Positions 2,475 to 15,044 of a stretch of DNA of 64,000 bases are shown in pieces. The first letter of the stretch is position 1; every line of letters starts with the position of its first letter. The notes under the pieces are model-generated. The model did not search any database and was not told where the DNA came from. It worked only from the letters and a program-made list of their open reading frames with translations. A program made the translations under genes and the position numbers. Source of the stretch: Escherichia coli (GTDB lineage Bacteria; Pseudomonadota; Gammaproteobacteria; Enterobacterales; Enterobacteriaceae); assembly GCF_001677475.2 (NCBI RefSeq), contig NZ_CP015229.1. The stretch is one strand, 5' to 3'.

Positions 2475-3862
2475 AAGAAACGCTCCATCTTACTGCTGTC
2501 AGTTCGTTTGTTACTGTACCTGCGCGGCTTGGACGGCTGCATTGGTGTGGAAAGAACCAGCGCACTTTCCTGGTCTACGGGCAGAAAATGTCCGTTATAA
2601 AAACGCCGGTAAATCGTTCCCAGAGAACCGTTACGTTGTTTCGTGATATTGATTTCCGCGATACCTCTGGCCTGCGTATCCGGGTTGTACACTTCATCCC
2701 TGTAAAGCATCAGAATGATGTCTGCATCAGCTTCTATTTCTCCGGAATTTTTCAGGTCTGAGTTCATAGGTCGTTTATTGGGTCTGGACTCAACTCCACG
2801 GGAAAGTTGGCTCAGCGCAATAACCGGTAATCCACCGGATTTTGCCAGGCCTTTAAGCCCTTTTGATATTTCCCCCACGGCAAGGTCATGACGGCCTGTG
2901 GATCGGGTTTTTATCAGCCCGAGATAATCAACCACCACCAGCGCCGTTTCCGGATGTTTAATCAGGTGGTGTTTCGTTGTTGCGCATATCTCGTCAATGG
3001 TCAGGTTCGCCTGGTCCACCATCCAGATATTGCGTCCGGTCATCAGCTCCACCCCCTTAATGAAACGCGCCCAGTCTTCGTCACCAAAGTGAGAGACAGA
3101 TTTCAGGCGTGATACCGGCATTCCTCCAGCCGCAGATACCATGCGTTCACCAATCTGGATGTTCGCCATTTCCATTGTGAACAGAAGAACACCATGCCCC
3201 TGCTCAGTCACCTTGTCGATGATATCCAGCGCCAGTTCTGTTTTCCCCATCGAAGGGCGAGCCGCGATGAATATCAGGTCGCCAGGCTCCATGCCGCCTG
3301 TTTTTGCGTCCAGTTCATCAATACCGGTCATCAACGTCCTGGATTTCTCCAGCCCCTTATTCCGGCATTCAACACGCTCAACCACCTCGGGAAGCACATC
3401 ATCAATATGTACCGGCTGAATAATGCCCTTTTCCGTCGACAATGAGGCCATCATGTTTTGCGCATCCTTCATGGCATCTTCAGCTGCTTCACAGGTATGC
3501 GCATCGCGTAATTTCTGCAATGCCTCATTCAGTATTTTTTCTGCATCACGCAGTGCAGCATTACGTCGCAGTGCTGCAACATAATGTTCCAGAGATGACT
3601 TCACCCAGGTTTTACGCCCGGAATCAGTAATCACCGGGGCAAGTTCCGGCATCTCATTACACAACAGCACAGGGTCAATCACGCCTGAAACACGGGCCTG
3701 TCGGCAGATGCCTGTGTAGATATCCCGATACGCTCGTACAGAAAAAACGTCTGCCGGCAATGTGGCCAGAATATCCATCACTTCATGATCAGCCCCGCGC
3801 AGAAAGAACGCACCAATGACAGCGCCTTCCAGGTCATCGTTACGCCAGACTGGAGTTGTCAT
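2471..3862 (-). CDS. Replicative DNA helicase, DnaB-like (phage-encoded)
   Basis: Walker A AARPSMGKTELAL, SQLSR motif and DnaB-like N-terminal domain; start taken at MTTPVWR, which overlaps the upstream stop (ATGA). Confidence 0.8.
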   Translation of the reverse strand: MTTPVWRNDDLEGAVIGAFFLRGADHEVMDILATLPADVFSVRAYRDIYTGICRQARVSGVIDPVLLCNEMPELAPVITDSGRKTWVKSSLEHYVAALRRNAALRDAEKILNEALQKLRDAHTCEAAEDAMKDAQNMMASLSTEKGIIQPVHIDDVLPEVVERVECRNKGLEKSRTLMTGIDELDAKTGGMEPGDLIFIAARPSMGKTELALDIIDKVTEQGHGVLLFTMEMANIQIGERMVSAAGGMPVSRLKSVSHFGDEDWARFIKGVELMTGRNIWMVDQANLTIDEICATTKHHLIKHPETALVVVDYLGLIKTRSTGRHDLAVGEISKGLKGLAKSGGLPVIALSQLSRGVESRPNKRPMNSDLKNSGEIEADADIILMLYRDEVYNPDTQARGIAEINITKQRNGSLGTIYRRFYNGHFLPVDQESALVLSTPMQPSKPRRYSNKRTDSSKMERFF

Positions 3863-7170: not shown

Positions 7171-7389
7171 TCATTCCACACCTACCCCTTCACGCTGATT
7201 CCAGTCATGAACAGCACGTTCTTTCGAATCAGGAATCTGGTTTGCGTTACAGCAAGTACATGCGACGTAATAACCATCATCGCCATCCAGAAAATATTTC
7301 ACCTCAATGAGTTGTACTTCCGGATTTCCGCAGAATGGGCAAGGTTTCAGCTCGACATCACCAGTTACACACGTCTTGATTTGCATCAT
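7171..7389 (-). CDS. Lar-family restriction alleviation protein (anti-restriction)
   Basis: ELKPCPFCG...GYYVACTCCNA...AVHDWNQR matches the Lar/restriction-alleviation zinc-ribbon signature (KPCPFCG ... C-x-x-C ... WN-R). Confidence 0.65.
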   Translation of the reverse strand: MMQIKTCVTGDVELKPCPFCGNPEVQLIEVKYFLDGDDGYYVACTCCNANQIPDSKERAVHDWNQREGVGVE

Positions 7390-8240
7390 TTGTTCTCCTG
7401 TAAAAGATTCGCAAGCTCAGTGTTATGGGTAAACAGCCCATCCCATGTTTTCTTCATCGGTAGTTCGCCGTTCAGATAATGGCGATATAACCAGGCAGCA
7501 CCTTTGGGCTTTAGTAACGGTTTAAAGGTGTCTCGCATTTCCCCATTTTCCTGCTCAACCCGGTTGTAGCGCTCCGTCAGATACTGATCACGTGCATACG
7601 CTTTTACACGCCAGCGTGGATACATAGCCTCCGGACGGTCGTCATACAGCCAGTTACGCTCTTCAAGGAACGCATTAATCTGACGAGTGTTTACACCGTT
7701 GAGTTGTTTGCAGAACTGCACAGGAGTGATGCCATCGGCGAGATGACTTTCGAGTTTGCTGATGTAGCGAGCCTGACGCTCTGCATACCCGAGAGCAAGG
7801 CGCTCGGATTTTTTGGCTTCAATCCACGCTTCAGCAGCAGCGATCGGATCGTCAAAGTCTGGAATAGTGTTTGAAGAAGGCGTTGCTTTACGAAAATACG
7901 CCTGCTCCATTTTTTCGAAGAACGACCAGGCCTCGTCTGTATCGACGATTTTTGACATGCGGGCAGCGCCGCGTTCTGTCCAGAGGACAAGTGATGTTGT
8001 ATGTTTATTAACCGACTCGCTAAAAGATAGTCGGAAAGATTTCAGCTCATCACTGCTGATTTTGAAAAAGTGTTTACCCTCAACGAAACGATCTTCATTT
8101 CGAATGTAGTTCTGTTGTATACGGATTGGCGTTGTTCCATATCCCGCCGCCAACGTTTCGGTGGTAACTACACGTACTCCCTGCCACTCAATAACTGGCA
8201 AGTTTTCAGGGTTGACTAATTTTTGTTTATTGATCATCAT
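7386..8240 (-). CDS. Phage antirepressor-like protein (ORF6N/KilA-N-type N-terminal domain)
   Basis: N-terminal IEWQGVRVVTTETLAAGYG...IRNEDRFVEGKHFFKI is characteristic of the ORF6N antirepressor domain; located immediately downstream of the Cro-like gene. Confidence 0.6.
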   Translation of the reverse strand: MMINKQKLVNPENLPVIEWQGVRVVTTETLAAGYGTTPIRIQQNYIRNEDRFVEGKHFFKISSDELKSFRLSFSESVNKHTTSLVLWTERGAARMSKIVDTDEAWSFFEKMEQAYFRKATPSSNTIPDFDDPIAAAEAWIEAKKSERLALGYAERQARYISKLESHLADGITPVQFCKQLNGVNTRQINAFLEERNWLYDDRPEAMYPRWRVKAYARDQYLTERYNRVEQENGEMRDTFKPLLKPKGAAWLYRHYLNGELPMKKTWDGLFTHNTELANLLQENK

Positions 8241-8316
8241 GAAATCCCCTTACTAATCAGAATAAGTCGGGCTGACGGAGTGCGGCCCGGCTTTTCTTTT
8301 TTCGTTCAGTAACCGT

Positions 8317-8583
8317 TCATCGCATGGACATTTCTGATGAATCACTCTGCCCATCTTCCGTGTGCGCTAAGCTTGGATGTGCTCCACGCTTGTTTTTGCG
8401 CGAGCGGTTCTTGTACAGGTTCAGATCGCACTTCAGAGCTCCATCAGTTAGTTTCTCAAGCTCCAGAGCACGCCCTTTAGGTACAATTGCTCCCCATCGA
8501 GTAACAGCCACTTGCGATACATCTAAAGCGCGCGCAACCTTTGCTTTAGTTCCAAAAAACGCAACTGCGTCTTGTGTTTTCAT
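8317..8583 (-). CDS. Cro/YdaS-like HTH DNA-binding protein
   Basis: 88 aa with N-terminal HTH (KAKVARALDVSQVAVTRW); divergent from the XRE repressor gene across a ~95-bp intergenic region. Confidence 0.55.
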   Translation of the reverse strand: MKTQDAVAFFGTKAKVARALDVSQVAVTRWGAIVPKGRALELEKLTDGALKCDLNLYKNRSRKNKRGAHPSLAHTEDGQSDSSEMSMR

Positions 8584-8678
8584 ACCACCTCCAAATAACT
8601 TATGTTTATCTTACTTCTATAACCATAGTTAGTTCAAGTTAACATATATTAATGATTCAACTAGTAGAGAGGATCCCC
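8584..8678. promoter_or_regulatory. Divergent promoter/operator region of the prophage immunity switch (predicted)
   Basis: AT-rich spacer between divergent HTH genes containing partially symmetric AGTTCAAGTTAAC / TTCAACTAGTA elements; operator sites not defined. Confidence 0.3.
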
Positions 8679-9065
8679 ATGGAAATAAGCGAACGCATTA
8701 CTATGAGACGCAAAGAGTTAGGACTTACCAAACTAGCCCTAGCCAAGACGCTAGGGCTGTCAGGTGTCAGCATATTGAAGTGGGAAAATGGGCAAAACGA
8801 GCCAAGCGGGAAAAACCTTTTCGCTCTCAGTGACGCTCTAAAATGCTCCCCGGCATGGTTGCTTTTTGGTGACGAAGATAAGTCTCCGACGCCAGTTGAT
8901 GAACTTCCAACAGAATTAGACGAGCAGCAAACTCAACTACTGAGTTTATTCAATCAACTACCAGACTCGGAAAAAACCATATTAATCAATGAGATATCAG
9001 CAAGAGTTGAGAACTTCAACAAACTATTTGAAGAATTACTAAGGGTCAGAAAACAACGCAAATAA
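8679..9065 (+). CDS. XRE-family HTH repressor (CI-like, short, no peptidase domain)
   Basis: MEISERITMRRKELGLTKLALAKTLGLSGVSILKWENG has an HTH_XRE signature; GAGAGGA RBS before ATG 8679; no S24/LexA-like autocleavage domain is visible. Confidence 0.6.
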   Translation: MEISERITMRRKELGLTKLALAKTLGLSGVSILKWENGQNEPSGKNLFALSDALKCSPAWLLFGDEDKSPTPVDELPTELDEQQTQLLSLFNQLPDSEKTILINEISARVENFNKLFEELLRVRKQRK

Positions 9066-9070
9066 TTATA

Positions 9071-9104
9071 AAACGGCAATCTATTCAGTAGGTTGCCGTT
9101 TTCT
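9071..9104 (+). terminator. Rho-independent terminator downstream of the repressor gene
   Basis: Hairpin CGGCAATCTATTCAGTAGGTTGCCG followed by TTTTC. Confidence 0.45.
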
Positions 9105-9209
9105 CACCCCCAAAAAACTAACTTTTATTAATTTTTACTTGCCCTAAAAGTTATCTTTAGTTATTGTTTGTGGCGTTTAGTTAATGCAACAAAAGTTATA
9201 GACGAAATT

Positions 9210-9668
9210 ATGAACACTCAAAATGGCGAACTTGACTTATTTGACATAGCAGACGAATCACAGATTTTGAACGATTTACTCTCAGTTATTGCATCCGTAA
9301 TCACACATGCAAGCAACGAAATAAACGAAATTGAATCGTGCATGAGCATTGCCTGGAGGATTAGCTCTTCAATTAATGAAAACTTACTTAAGCTCACCAG
9401 AACAGCACAAGCTAAATCAGCGCGTTCATGCAAACAAAATTTAGCTATTAATTCACAGAATCGTCTTCGCCACCAACGCGAAGCCTGCGGCTTAACAACC
9501 GCCGAACTCGCCAGGCTGCTCGATCTCGATGAAGAAATTATCATCCAGTGGGAGAGCGGAGAGTATGAACCAACTATCAGTATGCTTATCCCACTGGCAA
9601 ATGTTCTTGGTTGCGACCCGATATGGCTGTTAACTGGTAAACCAACAGGTGGGGATACTTGCGCATGA
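9210..9668 (+). CDS. Hypothetical protein with C-terminal XRE-type HTH domain
   Basis: C-terminal GLTTAELARLLDLDEEIIIQWESGEYEPTISMLIPLANVLGCDPIWLL is a typical HTH_XRE; the N-terminal ~90 aa are unassigned; start codon uncertain (track ORF begins at 9168). Confidence 0.5.
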   Translation: MNTQNGELDLFDIADESQILNDLLSVIASVITHASNEINEIESCMSIAWRISSSINENLLKLTRTAQAKSARSCKQNLAINSQNRLRHQREACGLTTAELARLLDLDEEIIIQWESGEYEPTISMLIPLANVLGCDPIWLLTGKPTGGDTCA

Positions 9669-9907
9669 AAAACTGTGATGCTTACCACATATGTCTCATT
9701 GGTGAATTGCTTGATTGCATACAAAAAAGCGCTGAGCGCAATAATAAAAATATAACATACGGTAATCTGGCAATAATTTCAGAGGATATTAAGAGCATCG
9801 CTCTTAAATTCAAGAGCGATGCGAACATTGACGACACTATTTACGCTTATCTTGCGAAAATAGTTGACGGATCCAAAAACCAGCCTCTGGATGAGGACCG
9901 TCAGTAA
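9665..9907 (+). CDS. Hypothetical small protein (80 aa)
   Basis: ATG overlaps the upstream stop (ATGA); its 3' end overlaps a convergent minus-strand ORF. Confidence 0.35.
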   Translation: MKNCDAYHICLIGELLDCIQKSAERNNKNITYGNLAIISEDIKSIALKFKSDANIDDTIYAYLAKIVDGSKNQPLDEDRQ

Positions 9908-10064
9908 AAAATTCATTTGATGAACATGAGAAGTGCTTCATAAAATTTACTTTATCTTCAGGTGAAACCACCTGACGAATTAATGCAGAGATAGCGACTT
10001 TGTGCCACATTAATTCTTTTTTGAGCGCTGAAATTTCTTTTTCAAGTTGCTCTTCGTTAATCAT
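9837..10064 (-). CDS. Hypothetical small coiled-coil protein (75 aa)
   Basis: ATG at 10062-10064 is preceded by a GGAGGA Shine-Dalgarno; the protein (MINEEQLEKEISALKKEL...) is predicted helical; it overlaps the 3' end of the plus-strand ORF 9665..9907. Confidence 0.4.
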   Translation of the reverse strand: MINEEQLEKEISALKKELMWHKVAISALIRQVVSPEDKVNFMKHFSCSSNEFFTDGPHPEAGFWIRQLFSQDKRK

Positions 10065-10244
10065 TTTATCCTCCATTGAGAGCTGAATTGTAAATGGAGA
10101 CCAACACGCGGCTACGTGTGGTCGTGCGCCGGACACGGATAAGCATCCGGTAACTAATTATCAATCATTGAGGAAACAGTCTCAATATGAAAACACTTCT
10201 GAGACTCGCTATATAGCAGAACATATAAGTCAGCTGAGGAAGCC

Positions 10245-10610
10245 ATGAAAAAGTTCGAAAACATAACTGTTCTCCATGTTGATGACTTTGATTATACAAA
10301 CCCGGAACTTCTCCCGGAGGTTGTAAAGGCAATAGATGTTGCCGATATAGTGATTAGAGGAAAGAGAATTGTCAAAAACAGGCTCGCATGCACTTCAGGA
10401 GCAATGACAGAAACAACCTCACAACAAGATGATTATGAAGGCATTTGTCTGGAGCCTGACTCATTTGCGGTAAATGTTTATCATTTATTGCATGCAACAC
10501 AGGTATTACATATGTCAAGTAATCACGAAACAAAAACACTTGGCAGCGAAATTCTGAATTTTGCATGTGAATATGCAAAAGCTGCTGCCGAAAAAGAATT
10601 AGCGCAATAA
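10245..10610 (+). CDS. Hypothetical protein (121 aa)
   Basis: ORF with GAGGAA RBS upstream of the ATG; no recognised motifs. Confidence 0.45.
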   Translation: MKKFENITVLHVDDFDYTNPELLPEVVKAIDVADIVIRGKRIVKNRLACTSGAMTETTSQQDDYEGICLEPDSFAVNVYHLLHATQVLHMSSNHETKTLGSEILNFACEYAKAAAEKELAQ

Positions 10611-10806
10611 CAATAAATATTCCCTGAATGTTTATTACGGTTTTATCGCCGGGGATTGTTGCAACCTTTATTCGCAGGAGATTATGTTATGACTTTCCTG
10701 AAACATAAGGCATCGTATAAAACTGCCTGCCTCATTGCACAACATGGAGATTCTTATCTTCATATAGCCAACCTGTATTTGCGCAAAGCATATGGGAGAT
10801 AAGTCA

Positions 10807-10995
10807 ATGGAAGAAAAACAACTGAACATAACACATGAAAAAGTAAGAGTGTTGCTAACTATTGAAAATGGAAAAGTAATTTACTCAAAACATCTGCTGG
10901 ATAATGAATTCGTTGGCTGCATGGATACATTTCTGTGGATGGCAAAAAGAGCAGGCTACACGATTATTCCACCAGCAAAGGAGCAAACATTATGA
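10807..10995 (+). CDS. Hypothetical small protein (62 aa)
   Basis: Internal ATG with GGGAG RBS; its stop overlaps the next ATG (ATGA). Confidence 0.35.
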   Translation: MEEKQLNITHEKVRVLLTIENGKVIYSKHLLDNEFVGCMDTFLWMAKRAGYTIIPPAKEQTL

Positions 10996-11573
10996 ATCAT
11001 TCAGAGTTCCAACCAGAAGTTACGCCACATGGCATAAAAATTGGCAATACAACCATTGATTATGTTGAGGCCGTACAGCGACTTAATGATGGTGAGTACG
11101 ACAATCCATACTGGCACGGTTTAAGAATCATGCAATGTATTGCGGAAGCCGATGATGCCGGATTCCTGGGAAGATTTTCAGTCGATCTGAAGGTTGCTCA
11201 GTGGCGCTGGCTGTATGTAGCGAAATTTATCAGTGAAGAGGAAGACAAGAACGGCACCATTGATATCCCTAACGATAACGGAACTACAGATCGCGCAGTT
11301 ATTTATAAGGGGAAGCATGGTTGCATGAGTATATACCCAGGGCCACTTCGCATTGCCCTGCAAAACCATGTCGAATGGGGATTCATTGAAAAATATGGCG
11401 AAGCTGAAGGCATGGGGCGAGTTCTGTTTCTCTATCAAAAAATGCTCATCGCAGATCCTGATAATGGCTTCATTGTCTCTGCTATGGGACGAGAAGGGCT
11501 TGAACTTCTTCTGGATGAAATGATTCACGATCTGAATACTCATGGTATGCCAGAAACACCAGTGGCACATTAA
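10992..11573 (+). CDS. Hypothetical protein (193 aa)
   Basis: ATG overlaps the upstream stop; no recognised motifs. Confidence 0.5.
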   Translation: MNHSEFQPEVTPHGIKIGNTTIDYVEAVQRLNDGEYDNPYWHGLRIMQCIAEADDAGFLGRFSVDLKVAQWRWLYVAKFISEEEDKNGTIDIPNDNGTTDRAVIYKGKHGCMSIYPGPLRIALQNHVEWGFIEKYGEAEGMGRVLFLYQKMLIADPDNGFIVSAMGREGLELLLDEMIHDLNTHGMPETPVAH

Positions 11574-13707: not shown

Positions 13708-13917
13708 GTGGGGCTGGATTGCGTACCTATATCAACCTACTGCCGCAACGCAGGAGAAACGGTTGATGCCGTTAACAAACGGATACAAAGAGGAATATGG
13801 AAAGAAGGGGTACATGTATTAAAAGTCGACGGAGTTAAAGAACGTTGGGTCGACTTAATGGAGATTACAAAATGGGCAAGAAAGAACAAGGATCATTATC
13901 TCTCCCCAGAGGAGTAA
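13708..13917 (+). CDS. Excisionase-like protein (putative Xis)
   Basis: 69-aa ORF with GTG start and GAGGTG RBS, immediately upstream of and overlapping the integrase gene; small winged-helix-like protein typical of Xis. Confidence 0.45.
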   Translation: MGLDCVPISTYCRNAGETVDAVNKRIQRGIWKEGVHVLKVDGVKERWVDLMEITKWARKNKDHYLSPEE

Positions 13918-15044
13918 CTATTCGCCAGCATAAAACTGGCAGCACCATGGTTATCACTTTTACATATAAAGGGGTTCTGTGTCGGGAGCCCCTCTCCAGA
14001 ATGGAAGTAAATGCGCGCGGTGTGAAGTACGCCGAGCGTCTGCTGGGAGAAATAAAAAATCAGATTATCGATGGTACCTTCGAATATGCAAAATACTTCC
14101 CCAACTCCCAAAAACTGGAGCTGTTCGGGGGAGTGAAAAAAAACAAAAATATAAAATCTTACCTGGATGAATACCTGATTATCTGCCAGAACCGTAACCT
14201 GTCACCATCGACAATTAAAGGTTATGAAAAATGCCTGTCGGCGCTGTCAGCACTGCACAAATTTCATGTATCAGAACTGACGCCAGCAGTACTCAAAAAC
14301 TGGATCGCCAGCAGAAAAACAAAACTGAAAACGATCCGCAATAATCTTTCATTTCTGCGCAGCGCCATAGATGAAGCGGTAACAGATGGTTTGTTAACAA
14401 TAAATCCTGTCACGCTAGTCAGCGCCAGCCGATATCACGTATTAGACAACACACCAGGCAGTGATGATTACGAGGTCGATCCTTTTACGCCAGCGGAGAC
14501 AGCAGCAATCTATGACGCCTGTCATTACCCGGAATGGCGAAATCTGTTTCGCTTCGCCTTTAATACCGGGCTGCGCAGCTCAGAATTGTGCGCGCTGCGC
14601 TGGACAGATATAGACTTCATCGACAACACAGCGCATGTCCAGACTGCAAGCGTAGTCGGGGTAATCAAAAGCACCAAAACAAAAGCCGGCACTCGCAAAG
14701 TACAACTGAACAGCGAAGCGCTGGCGGCTCTTCAGGCACAAAAGCCCTACACAGCGCTAAAAAGCGACTTTATATTCAGCGATCCGAAAACTCGCGCCCC
14801 TTGGGCAAACGCGGACGCGATTCGAAAAAAAGCCTGGCTACCAACCCTTAAAAAGGCTGGAGTACGCTATCGCAATCCGTACCAGACACGCCACACGTTC
14901 GCCACTAGGCACATTAGCCAGGGCGTTAATCTGTTCTGGCTTGCTGGTCAGATGGGGCATAAAGGACCGGAAATGCTGTTCAGACATTACGGTTCTTACC
15001 TTGCAGAATACGATGGAAAAACGGCGATTTCTGCAACCCCGTGA
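13872..15044 (+). CDS. Phage tyrosine integrase (IntR/IntS-like)
   Basis: C-terminal catalytic region with RHTFATRHISQGVNLFWLAGQMGHKGPEMLFRHYGSYL (R/H/Y motif region); N-terminal arm-binding-like domain; GGAG RBS before ATG 13872. Confidence 0.8.
   Translation: MGKKEQGSLSLPRGVTIRQHKTGSTMVITFTYKGVLCREPLSRMEVNARGVKYAERLLGEIKNQIIDGTFEYAKYFPNSQKLELFGGVKKNKNIKSYLDEYLIICQNRNLSPSTIKGYEKCLSALSALHKFHVSELTPAVLKNWIASRKTKLKTIRNNLSFLRSAIDEAVTDGLLTINPVTLVSASRYHVLDNTPGSDDYEVDPFTPAETAAIYDACHYPEWRNLFRFAFNTGLRSSELCALRWTDIDFIDNTAHVQTASVVGVIKSTKTKAGTRKVQLNSEALAALQAQKPYTALKSDFIFSDPKTRAPWANADAIRKKAWLPTLKKAGVRYRNPYQTRHTFATRHISQGVNLFWLAGQMGHKGPEMLFRHYGSYLAEYDGKTAISATP

Follow-up and report, generated by a model that had tools for sequence, protein, structure and literature searches.

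The convergent pair of small open reading frames (ORFs) in the accessory region of this prophage poses two linked problems: whether both frames are genes and, if they are, whether the overlap of their 3′ ends has a regulatory role. The window, a 64,000-nucleotide stretch of an Escherichia coli genome given on one strand, contains a plus-strand ORF of 80 aa (9665..9907; ATG at 9665 to TAA at 9905-9907) and a minus-strand ORF of 75 aa (9837..10064; ATG at 10064-10062 to TAG at 9839-9837). The initial annotation had put their 3′ overlap at about 70 bp and considered transcriptional interference, antisense pairing or a toxin-antitoxin arrangement, or else that one of the two frames is spurious. 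Both sets of coordinates hold, and the 3′ ends share 71 bp (9837-9907). The prophage setting that had been proposed is also correct. The locus corresponds to genes L10-L09-L08 of a phiP27-like E. coli prophage adjoining ypjA, and it lies between the immunity genes and the integrase (13845-15044), which marks one prophage end in the window and is followed by chromosomal ypjA. Positions 9459-10700 share 98.5% DNA identity with phage phiP27 (AJ298298 / NC_003356), in which L10 is the helix-turn-helix (HTH) gene and L09 and L08 follow. The segment 9640-10100 is carried by 56 complete E. coli genomes, which fall into identity bands of ≥99%, 95-99% and 90-95%; E. coli MFDS1022581 matches the window at 100% across it. 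Public E. coli assemblies contain thousands of copies, one variant (P0027) by itself occurring on at least 1000 contigs. Our haplotype set, which includes metagenome and IMG/VR copies, comprises 20 distinct sequences in three clades up to 10% apart, and both ORFs are open in 17 of them.

The plus ORF is joined to an HTH regulator gene of the XRE/DicA-like, phiP27 L10 type (9210..9668, plus strand), the start of which is ambiguous between ATG 9210 and TTG 9168. Its product carries a C-terminal HTH_3 domain (Pfam, E=2e-11), matches phrog_4739/phrog_4836, labelled 'CII-like' by PHROGs, and resembles the NCBIfam DicA subfamily at E=7e-11, under the cutoff for that family. This gene is annotated in all relatives and is found without the plus ORF in related phages. 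The coupling suggested by the initial annotation is evident in the anatomy, as the plus ORF's ATG overlaps the TGA of the HTH gene (9666-9668) in the form ATGA. The 27 bases that precede this ATG are the most variable of the locus (13 events, 0.48 per bp), and the hypervariable stretch on the plus strand at 9638..9659 retains a purine motif resembling a Shine-Dalgarno (SD) sequence. The motif (GGGGA, GGAGA or AAGGA) stands 8-11 nt upstream of the ATG in four of four sequence variants, and the anti-SD duplex amounts to -5.4 to -6.4 kcal/mol in all of them. The plus ORF would be translated through this coupling, with the ATGA and the SD-like motif, on the transcript of the HTH gene.

On the opposite strand, the minus ORF has the strong ribosome-binding site ascribed to it, with GGAGGA at 10074-10069, 4 nt before the ATG, and an anti-SD duplex of -9.3 kcal/mol. 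It is recorded in RefSeq (WP_032082696.1 / WP_000606214.1) and fits phrog_20080 from end to end (E=5.5e-42, profile positions 1-75/75). For selection, every variable site among the haplotypes was classified in all six frames and compared with a permutation null, in which identical base changes fell at random positions holding the identical base. In the part of the minus frame outside the overlap (9908-10061), 10 of 26 changes are synonymous against 5.96 expected (P=0.048), the amino-acid changes are cheap by BLOSUM cost (P=0.033), and codon positions 1/2/3 hold 6/4/16 changes. The dN/dS ratio there is 0.11-0.21 relative to clade C (L002) and the recombinant L012, and 1.2-1.4 relative to clade B, where it is based on 1 synonymous change. 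A codon-usage log-odds score trained on 18 trusted prophage genes, which in leave-one-out trials ranked the true frame first in 18/18 and gave the trusted genes 0.035-0.204 per codon, assigns the minus ORF 0.128 per codon and its unique part 0.176. GTG 10136 was considered as an earlier start for the minus ORF and rejected, since in clade C a 1-nt deletion separating the SD from the ATG disrupts the GTG frame. Taken together, these features make it very probable that the minus ORF is a gene. It is correspondingly very improbable that the plus ORF is the sole gene and the minus ORF spurious. An older annotation of at least one genome apparently lacked the minus ORF, its tag in strain ZH063 (AVR76_RS26745) being out of series, and the codon-usage score within the overlap favours the plus frame. 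Against this stand the minus ORF's third-position bias, its strong SD, a promoter and leader that it has in common with other genes, and the finding, described below, that constraint in the overlap falls on its frame.

The case for the plus ORF is built from several properties of its own part. Between 9668 and 9836 the plus frame has 0 stops, while each of the other five frames has 1-10, so that the openness of the plus ORF exceeds chance. In the same interval 12 of 28 changes are synonymous in the plus frame against 7.75 expected (P=0.043 by permutation), the BLOSUM cost is reduced (P=0.045), and the changes are distributed 9/6/13 over codon positions 1/2/3, or 6/4/13 when only full-length haplotypes are counted. 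None of the other five frames shows either signal in the plus ORF's own part (synonymous P ≥0.48, cost P ≥0.22). Three clade comparisons of the part outside the overlap give a dN/dS of 0.20-0.21, equal to that of the neighbouring HTH gene, L08 and L07. The individual selection tests reach P values of only 0.02-0.05 because about 25 variable sites in three clades are available to them. Codon usage points the same way. The plus ORF scores 0.206 per codon (0.177 in its unique part), as high as the best trusted genes, and ranks 2 among the 52 non-training prophage ORFs of at least 55 codons; no ORF contained entirely within a trusted gene in a different frame exceeds 0.142. Population samples contain similar numbers of protein variants for the two ORFs (103 cluster members for plus vs 83 for minus), with 31 of 80 residues variable in the plus product and 21 of 75 in the minus product among the listed members. 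The earlier impression that both ORFs look plausible is thus strengthened by purifying selection, seen in dN/dS across related prophages, and by gene-like codon usage in the non-overlapping part of each frame. On this sequence-based evidence, the plus ORF is probably a gene.

That the plus ORF is spurious, as the initial annotation had allowed, is less probable. In such a reading, the main rival of the one we favour though rather unlikely, the minus ORF would be the only gene, the plus ORF a chance frame within the 198-bp 3′ flank of the minus-strand cassette, which holds the terminator hairpin of the minus gene, and the ATGA coupling fortuitous. The annotation record partly agrees with it. 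Current RefSeq annotates the minus ORF alone in every relative examined and omits the plus ORF. Many GenBank records for E. coli have listed both ORFs as proteins, at times as neighbours (C9Z13_09285/09290, EFA4903651/52); both are among the stored gene calls of the contig collection, and each has a PHROGs family. The plus ORF of strain ETEC6 used to bear the tag FNW97_10510, and the RefSeq tags now jump from FNW97_RS10505 to RS10515, a gap suggesting that RefSeq dropped it. A chance frame would also be consistent with the lack of distant homologues of the plus ORF, with a palindrome at 9795-9822, inside the plus ORF, where a terminator of the minus gene would be expected, with the neutrality of the plus frame in the overlap, and with one low-coverage metagenome contig in which a 31-bp deletion destroys the plus ORF and leaves the minus ORF intact. 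Moreover, the 3′ gap to the next gene measures 0-186 bp in other cassettes that carry this leader, so a long flank would be unremarkable. It is less easily reconciled with the selection signals, since from 9665 to 9836 the plus frame alone of six combines a synonymous excess, cheaper amino-acid changes and a codon-position order of third over first over second, with a dN/dS of 0.2. Codon usage equal to that of the best trusted genes and above that of every clearly spurious ORF, and an SD-like motif kept within the hypervariable stretch, likewise argue for a translated frame.

The predicted proteins suggest how two genes could come to share their ends. The plus product, which is acidic and fits phrog_23054 nearly throughout (E=4.4e-48, profile positions 3-82/82), is modelled by AlphaFold2 at pLDDT 66 with three helices (residues 4-25, 32-48 and 55-67). 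Its pLDDT falls below 50 at residues 71-80, and the tail from 68 to 80 is predicted to be disordered; the low-pLDDT tail coincides with the neutral part of the overlap. The minus product, modelled at pLDDT 67 with a long N-terminal helix, is helical as had been predicted, at the modest confidence that applies to both models. Searches of Pfam, NCBIfam and PADLOC (E up to 0.1-1) and of PDB sequences gave no match for either ORF, a word-based search of 5.8 billion proteins found only relatives at ≥69% identity for both, and a HMMER search of 1.84 billion representative proteins returned for the plus ORF its own cluster and no outside relative. No PDB fold matched the plus ORF model under E=1. We considered whether the plus ORF might be the C-terminal domain of longer L10-type regulators, split off from them, and discarded the idea, as there is no similarity and a second HTH occupies that place in those proteins. 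Our literature search found no publication on either ORF.

Within the 71-bp overlap, constraint acts on the minus frame only and the plus frame is neutral. In the minus frame 6 of 15 changes are synonymous against 3.87 expected (P=0.14), the cost is reduced (P=0.022), the codon positions hold 4/5/6 changes and dN/dS is 0.22-0.58; in the plus frame 3 of 15 are synonymous against 3.34 expected (P=0.71; cost P=0.51), the codon positions hold 4/6/5 and dN/dS is 0.7-2.1. The purifying selection on both frames that a dual-coding pair would display was therefore not found in the overlap. Nor is the overlap conserved above its flanks, as an antisense pairing region should be; it varies more than any other segment of the locus, with 0.20-0.21 events per bp vs 0.13-0.17. 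Variation within it is uneven, with 2 variable sites in 9837-9865 vs 13 in 9866-9907, and the quiet part matches a second inverted repeat (9836..9864; 11-nt arms, 91% complementary) that spans the minus ORF's stop.

These observations bear directly on whether the two ORFs work together as a regulatory pair, either toxin-antitoxin-like or similar to cII and oop, in which RNA pairing or convergent transcription would set the ratio of the two products. The ORFs always co-occur, degenerate-pattern scans of IMG/VR finding both in the same 21 contigs, although this is trivial because the ORFs physically overlap. The promoters are convergent with no plus-strand terminator in between, variation in the overlap is lowest over its first 29 bp, which make up an inverted repeat, and the upstream gene is of the XRE-type HTH class, a common type of antitoxin. 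On the other side, variability peaks in the overlap as a whole, contrary to what would be expected of a conserved pairing region, and neither ORF matches a toxin, antitoxin or defence family. Both products are also charge-rich by sequence and modelled as amphipathic helices, which, as far as sequence and model can tell, does not resemble the small hydrophobic toxins of type I systems. We therefore regard a regulatory pair as unlikely. As to the interference or antisense effect originally envisaged, the anatomy makes convergent transcription across the overlap likely, but nothing points to its regulatory use; the overlap looks incidental.

The two ORFs also have a common evolutionary context. 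Homology with phage PhiR49_2 ends at 9638 and resumes at 10158, and homology with phage ASU11 ends at 9638 and resumes at 10161. In PhiR49_2 a different 158-bp segment takes the place of 9639-10157, and in ASU11 9639-10157 is missing. This delimits a variable cassette of 519 bp (9639..10157), the left boundary of which falls in the hypervariable stretch and which encompasses the final 10 HTH codons together with both ORFs, the plus ORF's SD and the minus ORF's leader. Because the segment is replaced or absent in otherwise collinear phages, it behaves as an exchangeable block. At the same site PhiR49_2 and ASU11 carry a different minus-strand small gene (MIDKNVRMYLEGRSGDY... / MVERNVRMYLDGRSGDY...), which is conserved as a protein between the two phages and of which the window retains a remnant, MIDN*, on the minus strand at 10154..10168, the intact gene being that in PhiR49_2 and ASU11. 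As read from the sequence, the HTH gene and the alternative small gene of ASU11 overlap convergently by about 20 bp, indicating that end-to-end crowding recurs at this site.

Signals for expression of the minus strand are found immediately upstream of the minus ORF. A candidate sigma-70-like promoter at 10157..10185 (minus strand; TTGAGA-17-GATAAT, 10/12 matches) has a -10-like hexamer ending 6 nt before position 10150, the first base of a GC-rich, near-invariant 5′ leader of 86 nt (10065..10150, minus strand). Although the coding parts of the clades diverge by about 9%, only 2 of the leader's 86 positions vary. Folding predictions give the leader three hairpins, of which the third pairs CUCCAU with the AUGGAG of the SD (z=-2.2). 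As the stems are invariant, the alignment contains 0 compensatory pairs and the structure is a prediction only. A search of 8200-11200 with Rfam covariance models (E up to 5) gave only three chance-level, unrelated matches, and our literature search found no publication on the leader. Beyond the minus ORF's stop, by 15 nt, lies the 28-bp palindrome at 9795..9822, which has an 11-12 bp stem and a predicted RNA fold of -21.8 kcal/mol on the minus strand (z=-3.6; z=-3.2 on the plus strand). Its minus-strand tail (UCUUAAUAU) is U-rich but under the U-tract threshold of the terminator scan, and it is plausible that the hairpin 9822-9795 is a non-canonical terminator or stabiliser of the minus-strand mRNA. 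A boxA/nut site in the palindrome (CGCTCTTA) was considered and set aside, as the motif occurs at chance frequency (2 found vs 1.9 expected). No plus-strand terminator was found by the scan between 9907 and 10250, so that the transcript carrying the HTH gene and the plus ORF likely reads through over the minus ORF, and antisense interference with the minus ORF may follow.

The leader is not confined to this locus. Copies at 82-100% identity number 1627 in complete E. coli genomes, spread over 972 of the 5426, and more than 120 IMG/VR contigs carry it too; wherever a start codon can be placed, the leader ends at the start codon of a small ORF. The cargo that follows the leader and its ribosome-binding site belongs to at least eight sequence-unrelated families of 57-101 aa, including a BssS-like protein, a GhoS-like protein (PF11080, E=3e-4), CxxC proteins and several orphans; kinship of the minus ORF with the BssS-like protein found under the same leader was looked for, and there is no similarity. 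The leader has three settings, namely this locus, beside cro, and between a ydfC-like gene and dicB, the last in O157:H7 and O145 prophages, where it is antisense to the dicB operon. In the Qin prophage of K-12, only the first 28 nt of the leader are present, between ydfC and dicF. A -10-like hexamer precedes the leader's first base by 6-7 nt in three non-homologous upstream contexts. These observations allow a speculative reading, which we hold to be improbable as it stands, in which the leader would be an undescribed SD-hiding cis-regulatory RNA or a recombination anchor, serving as a common expression platform with a cargo that at this locus is additionally tuned by transcription converging on it from the coupled operon of the HTH gene and the plus ORF. 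The SD-hiding element might perhaps be a switch that responds to temperature or to a trans-acting factor. If such a reading is right, swappable small prophage ORFs would be carried on one platform in about 18% of complete E. coli genomes. The shared leader, with its predicted occluded ribosome-binding site, points to a common, unstudied mechanism of control or exchange of prophage accessory genes. This by-product of the analysis is possibly more important than the overlap itself.

The explanation that we favour, and consider slightly likelier to be right than wrong, is that one accessory cassette carries both ORFs as genuine genes for small proteins and that their overlap stems from a dispensable tail of the plus ORF. 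The two would travel jointly in the 519-bp cassette at 9639-10157 of phiP27-like E. coli prophages, in which the minus ORF would constitute a stand-alone unit of the moron type. The promoter at 10185-10157 would produce an mRNA with the 86-nt leader, whose third hairpin may pair with the strong SD ahead of the 75-aa ORF, and this transcript would probably end at the hairpin 9822-9795. The structured part of the plus product would extend to about residue 67, its last 13 or so codons encoding an unconstrained, disordered tail laid over the end of the minus ORF, and the 71-bp overlap would be a by-product of tight packing. The anatomy, the limits of the cassette, the signals of selection in either frame and the wide distribution of the leader are direct observations; the ends of the transcripts, translation of the two ORFs and the lack of a regulatory role for the overlap are inferred. 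Little is at stake in the overlap itself. As regards annotation, the locus probably has an 80-aa gene that current RefSeq lacks, and L09 is misread in the phiP27 reference. More generally, a convergent overlap as long as 71 bp can arise from a dispensable tail, which advises caution before regulation is assumed in every such overlap.

Among the closest known systems is the L10-L09-L08 segment of phiP27, which has a gene order identical to that of the window, where both ORFs fit their PHROG profiles over the full length. The repressor of cI type and the N-terminal portion of L10 are different in the window. A single additional T in the phiP27 record, within the T-run at window positions 10017-10022, shifts the frame of the 75-aa ORF, so that the annotated 'L09' is a different reading of 59 aa, and the record leaves the plus ORF unannotated. 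Type II toxin-antitoxin operons with an XRE-HTH antitoxin, such as those of HipB/HipA-like organisation, are brought to mind by an HTH gene followed by a translationally coupled small ORF, although here the plus ORF is without toxin homology, its acidic product is modelled as helical, and the HTH gene also occurs alone. Apart from the generic HTH of the upstream gene, Pfam, NCBIfam and PADLOC reveal no homology to toxin or antitoxin families for either ORF, and together with the charge-rich make-up of both products and an overlap constrained in the minus frame only, this leaves nothing to support the toxin-antitoxin or dedicated regulatory locus that the arrangement had first suggested. In phage lambda, the antisense RNA oop runs against cII, and 3′-overlapping convergent transcripts exist generally. 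The present locus resembles that system in having a convergent transcript over the 3′ end of a gene beside a 'CII-like' HTH regulator. It differs in that the antisense partner encodes a protein and the genes lie on the cI-int side rather than the cro-O side; there is no sequence similarity, and the pairing region is not conserved above background. Phage morons are accessory genes that bring along a promoter and terminator of their own and run counter to the operon into which they are inserted. The minus ORF resembles them in its promoter-like site, leader, post-stop hairpin and orientation opposite to its neighbours, and in being present or absent between otherwise collinear phages. Unlike a typical moron, its cassette includes a second, opposite ORF that relies on an upstream phage gene for expression, and its leader is common to many unrelated cargo ORFs. 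Overall, the arrangement is ordinary for the accessory regions of mosaic prophages.

The 75-aa minus-strand ORF (9837-10064) is headed by a near-invariant 86-nt leader (10065-10150, minus strand) that would fold into three hairpins, with a promoter-like site at 10157-10185 on the same strand; in the predicted fold, the third and last hairpin pairs the Shine-Dalgarno sequence. The same leader heads small ORFs of at least eight sequence-unrelated families. Among 5426 complete E. coli genomes, 972 carry the leader, with 1627 occurrences in all, and more than 120 IMG/VR contigs have it as well. The leader has no match in Rfam, and a search for covariation in its hairpins found none.

Leader copies also occur in other E. 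coli prophages. In lambdoid prophages of O157:H7 and O145, the leader and a 61- to 69-aa ORF are flanked by a ydfC-like gene on one side and dicB on the other, and run antisense to the dicB operon (e.g., L040 2501-2772, from E. coli O157:H7 86-24; also comparison sequences L041 and L042). In the Qin prophage of K-12, the leader is reduced to its first 28 nt, corresponding to hairpin 1, between ydfC and dicF (NC_000913, about 1649102-1649129; L185 2603-2630).

At the site of the exchangeable cassette (9639-10157), the window retains a remnant of another small gene, the four codons MIDN* (10154-10168, minus strand). This gene is intact, and its protein conserved, in phages PhiR49_2 (L016 2679-2846, minus strand) and ASU11 (L017, about 2554-2718, minus strand), where its 3′-end likewise runs over the 3′-end of the L10 HTH gene as annotated. 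The left cassette boundary coincides with a hypervariable stretch comprising the last nine codons of the HTH gene (9638-9664), which, with 13 events in 27 bp, is the locus maximum of variability; the C-terminal peptide of the HTH protein is clade dependent (KPTGGDTCA versus ETAAKDICA). Within the 75-aa ORF, the T-run at 10017-10022 is T7 in the phiP27 reference (L003, AJ298298) and T6 in every other copy. The seventh T, either a genuine mutation or perhaps an error made in sequencing, shifts the frame, and the published 59-aa L09 is therefore a different reading.

The L08 gene (10245-10610) encodes 121 aa according to the phage authors and the contig gene calls, and 68 aa (10404-10610) in RefSeq. 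Its N-terminal part is five times less variable than its C-terminal part (0.05 versus 0.25 events/bp), and the latter is similar to the domain at the N-terminus of certain L10-type regulators (phrog_4836 match; PhiR49_2 L10). In Stx phages, the L10-type regulator has 216 aa and two tandem HTH domains (L015 2284-2934, Stx1a phage Stx1_14040), indicating that this regulator family is modular.

Directly after the 137-aa cI-like HTH gene (8652-9065) lies an inverted repeat, AAAACGGCAA...TTGCCGTTTT (9070-9102), that looks like an intrinsic terminator, and thus transcription of the L10-type HTH gene probably starts from a separate promoter; a second inverted repeat (9114-9127/9145-9158) lies upstream of that gene. 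Beyond cro is an ORF6N/KilAC antirepressor-type gene (7386-8240), whose presence together with the repressor-like 137-aa HTH protein, which has no S24 peptidase domain, hints that induction may be driven by an antirepressor. In lacking this domain, the window's protein differs from phiP27 L11 and most relatives, in which it is present.
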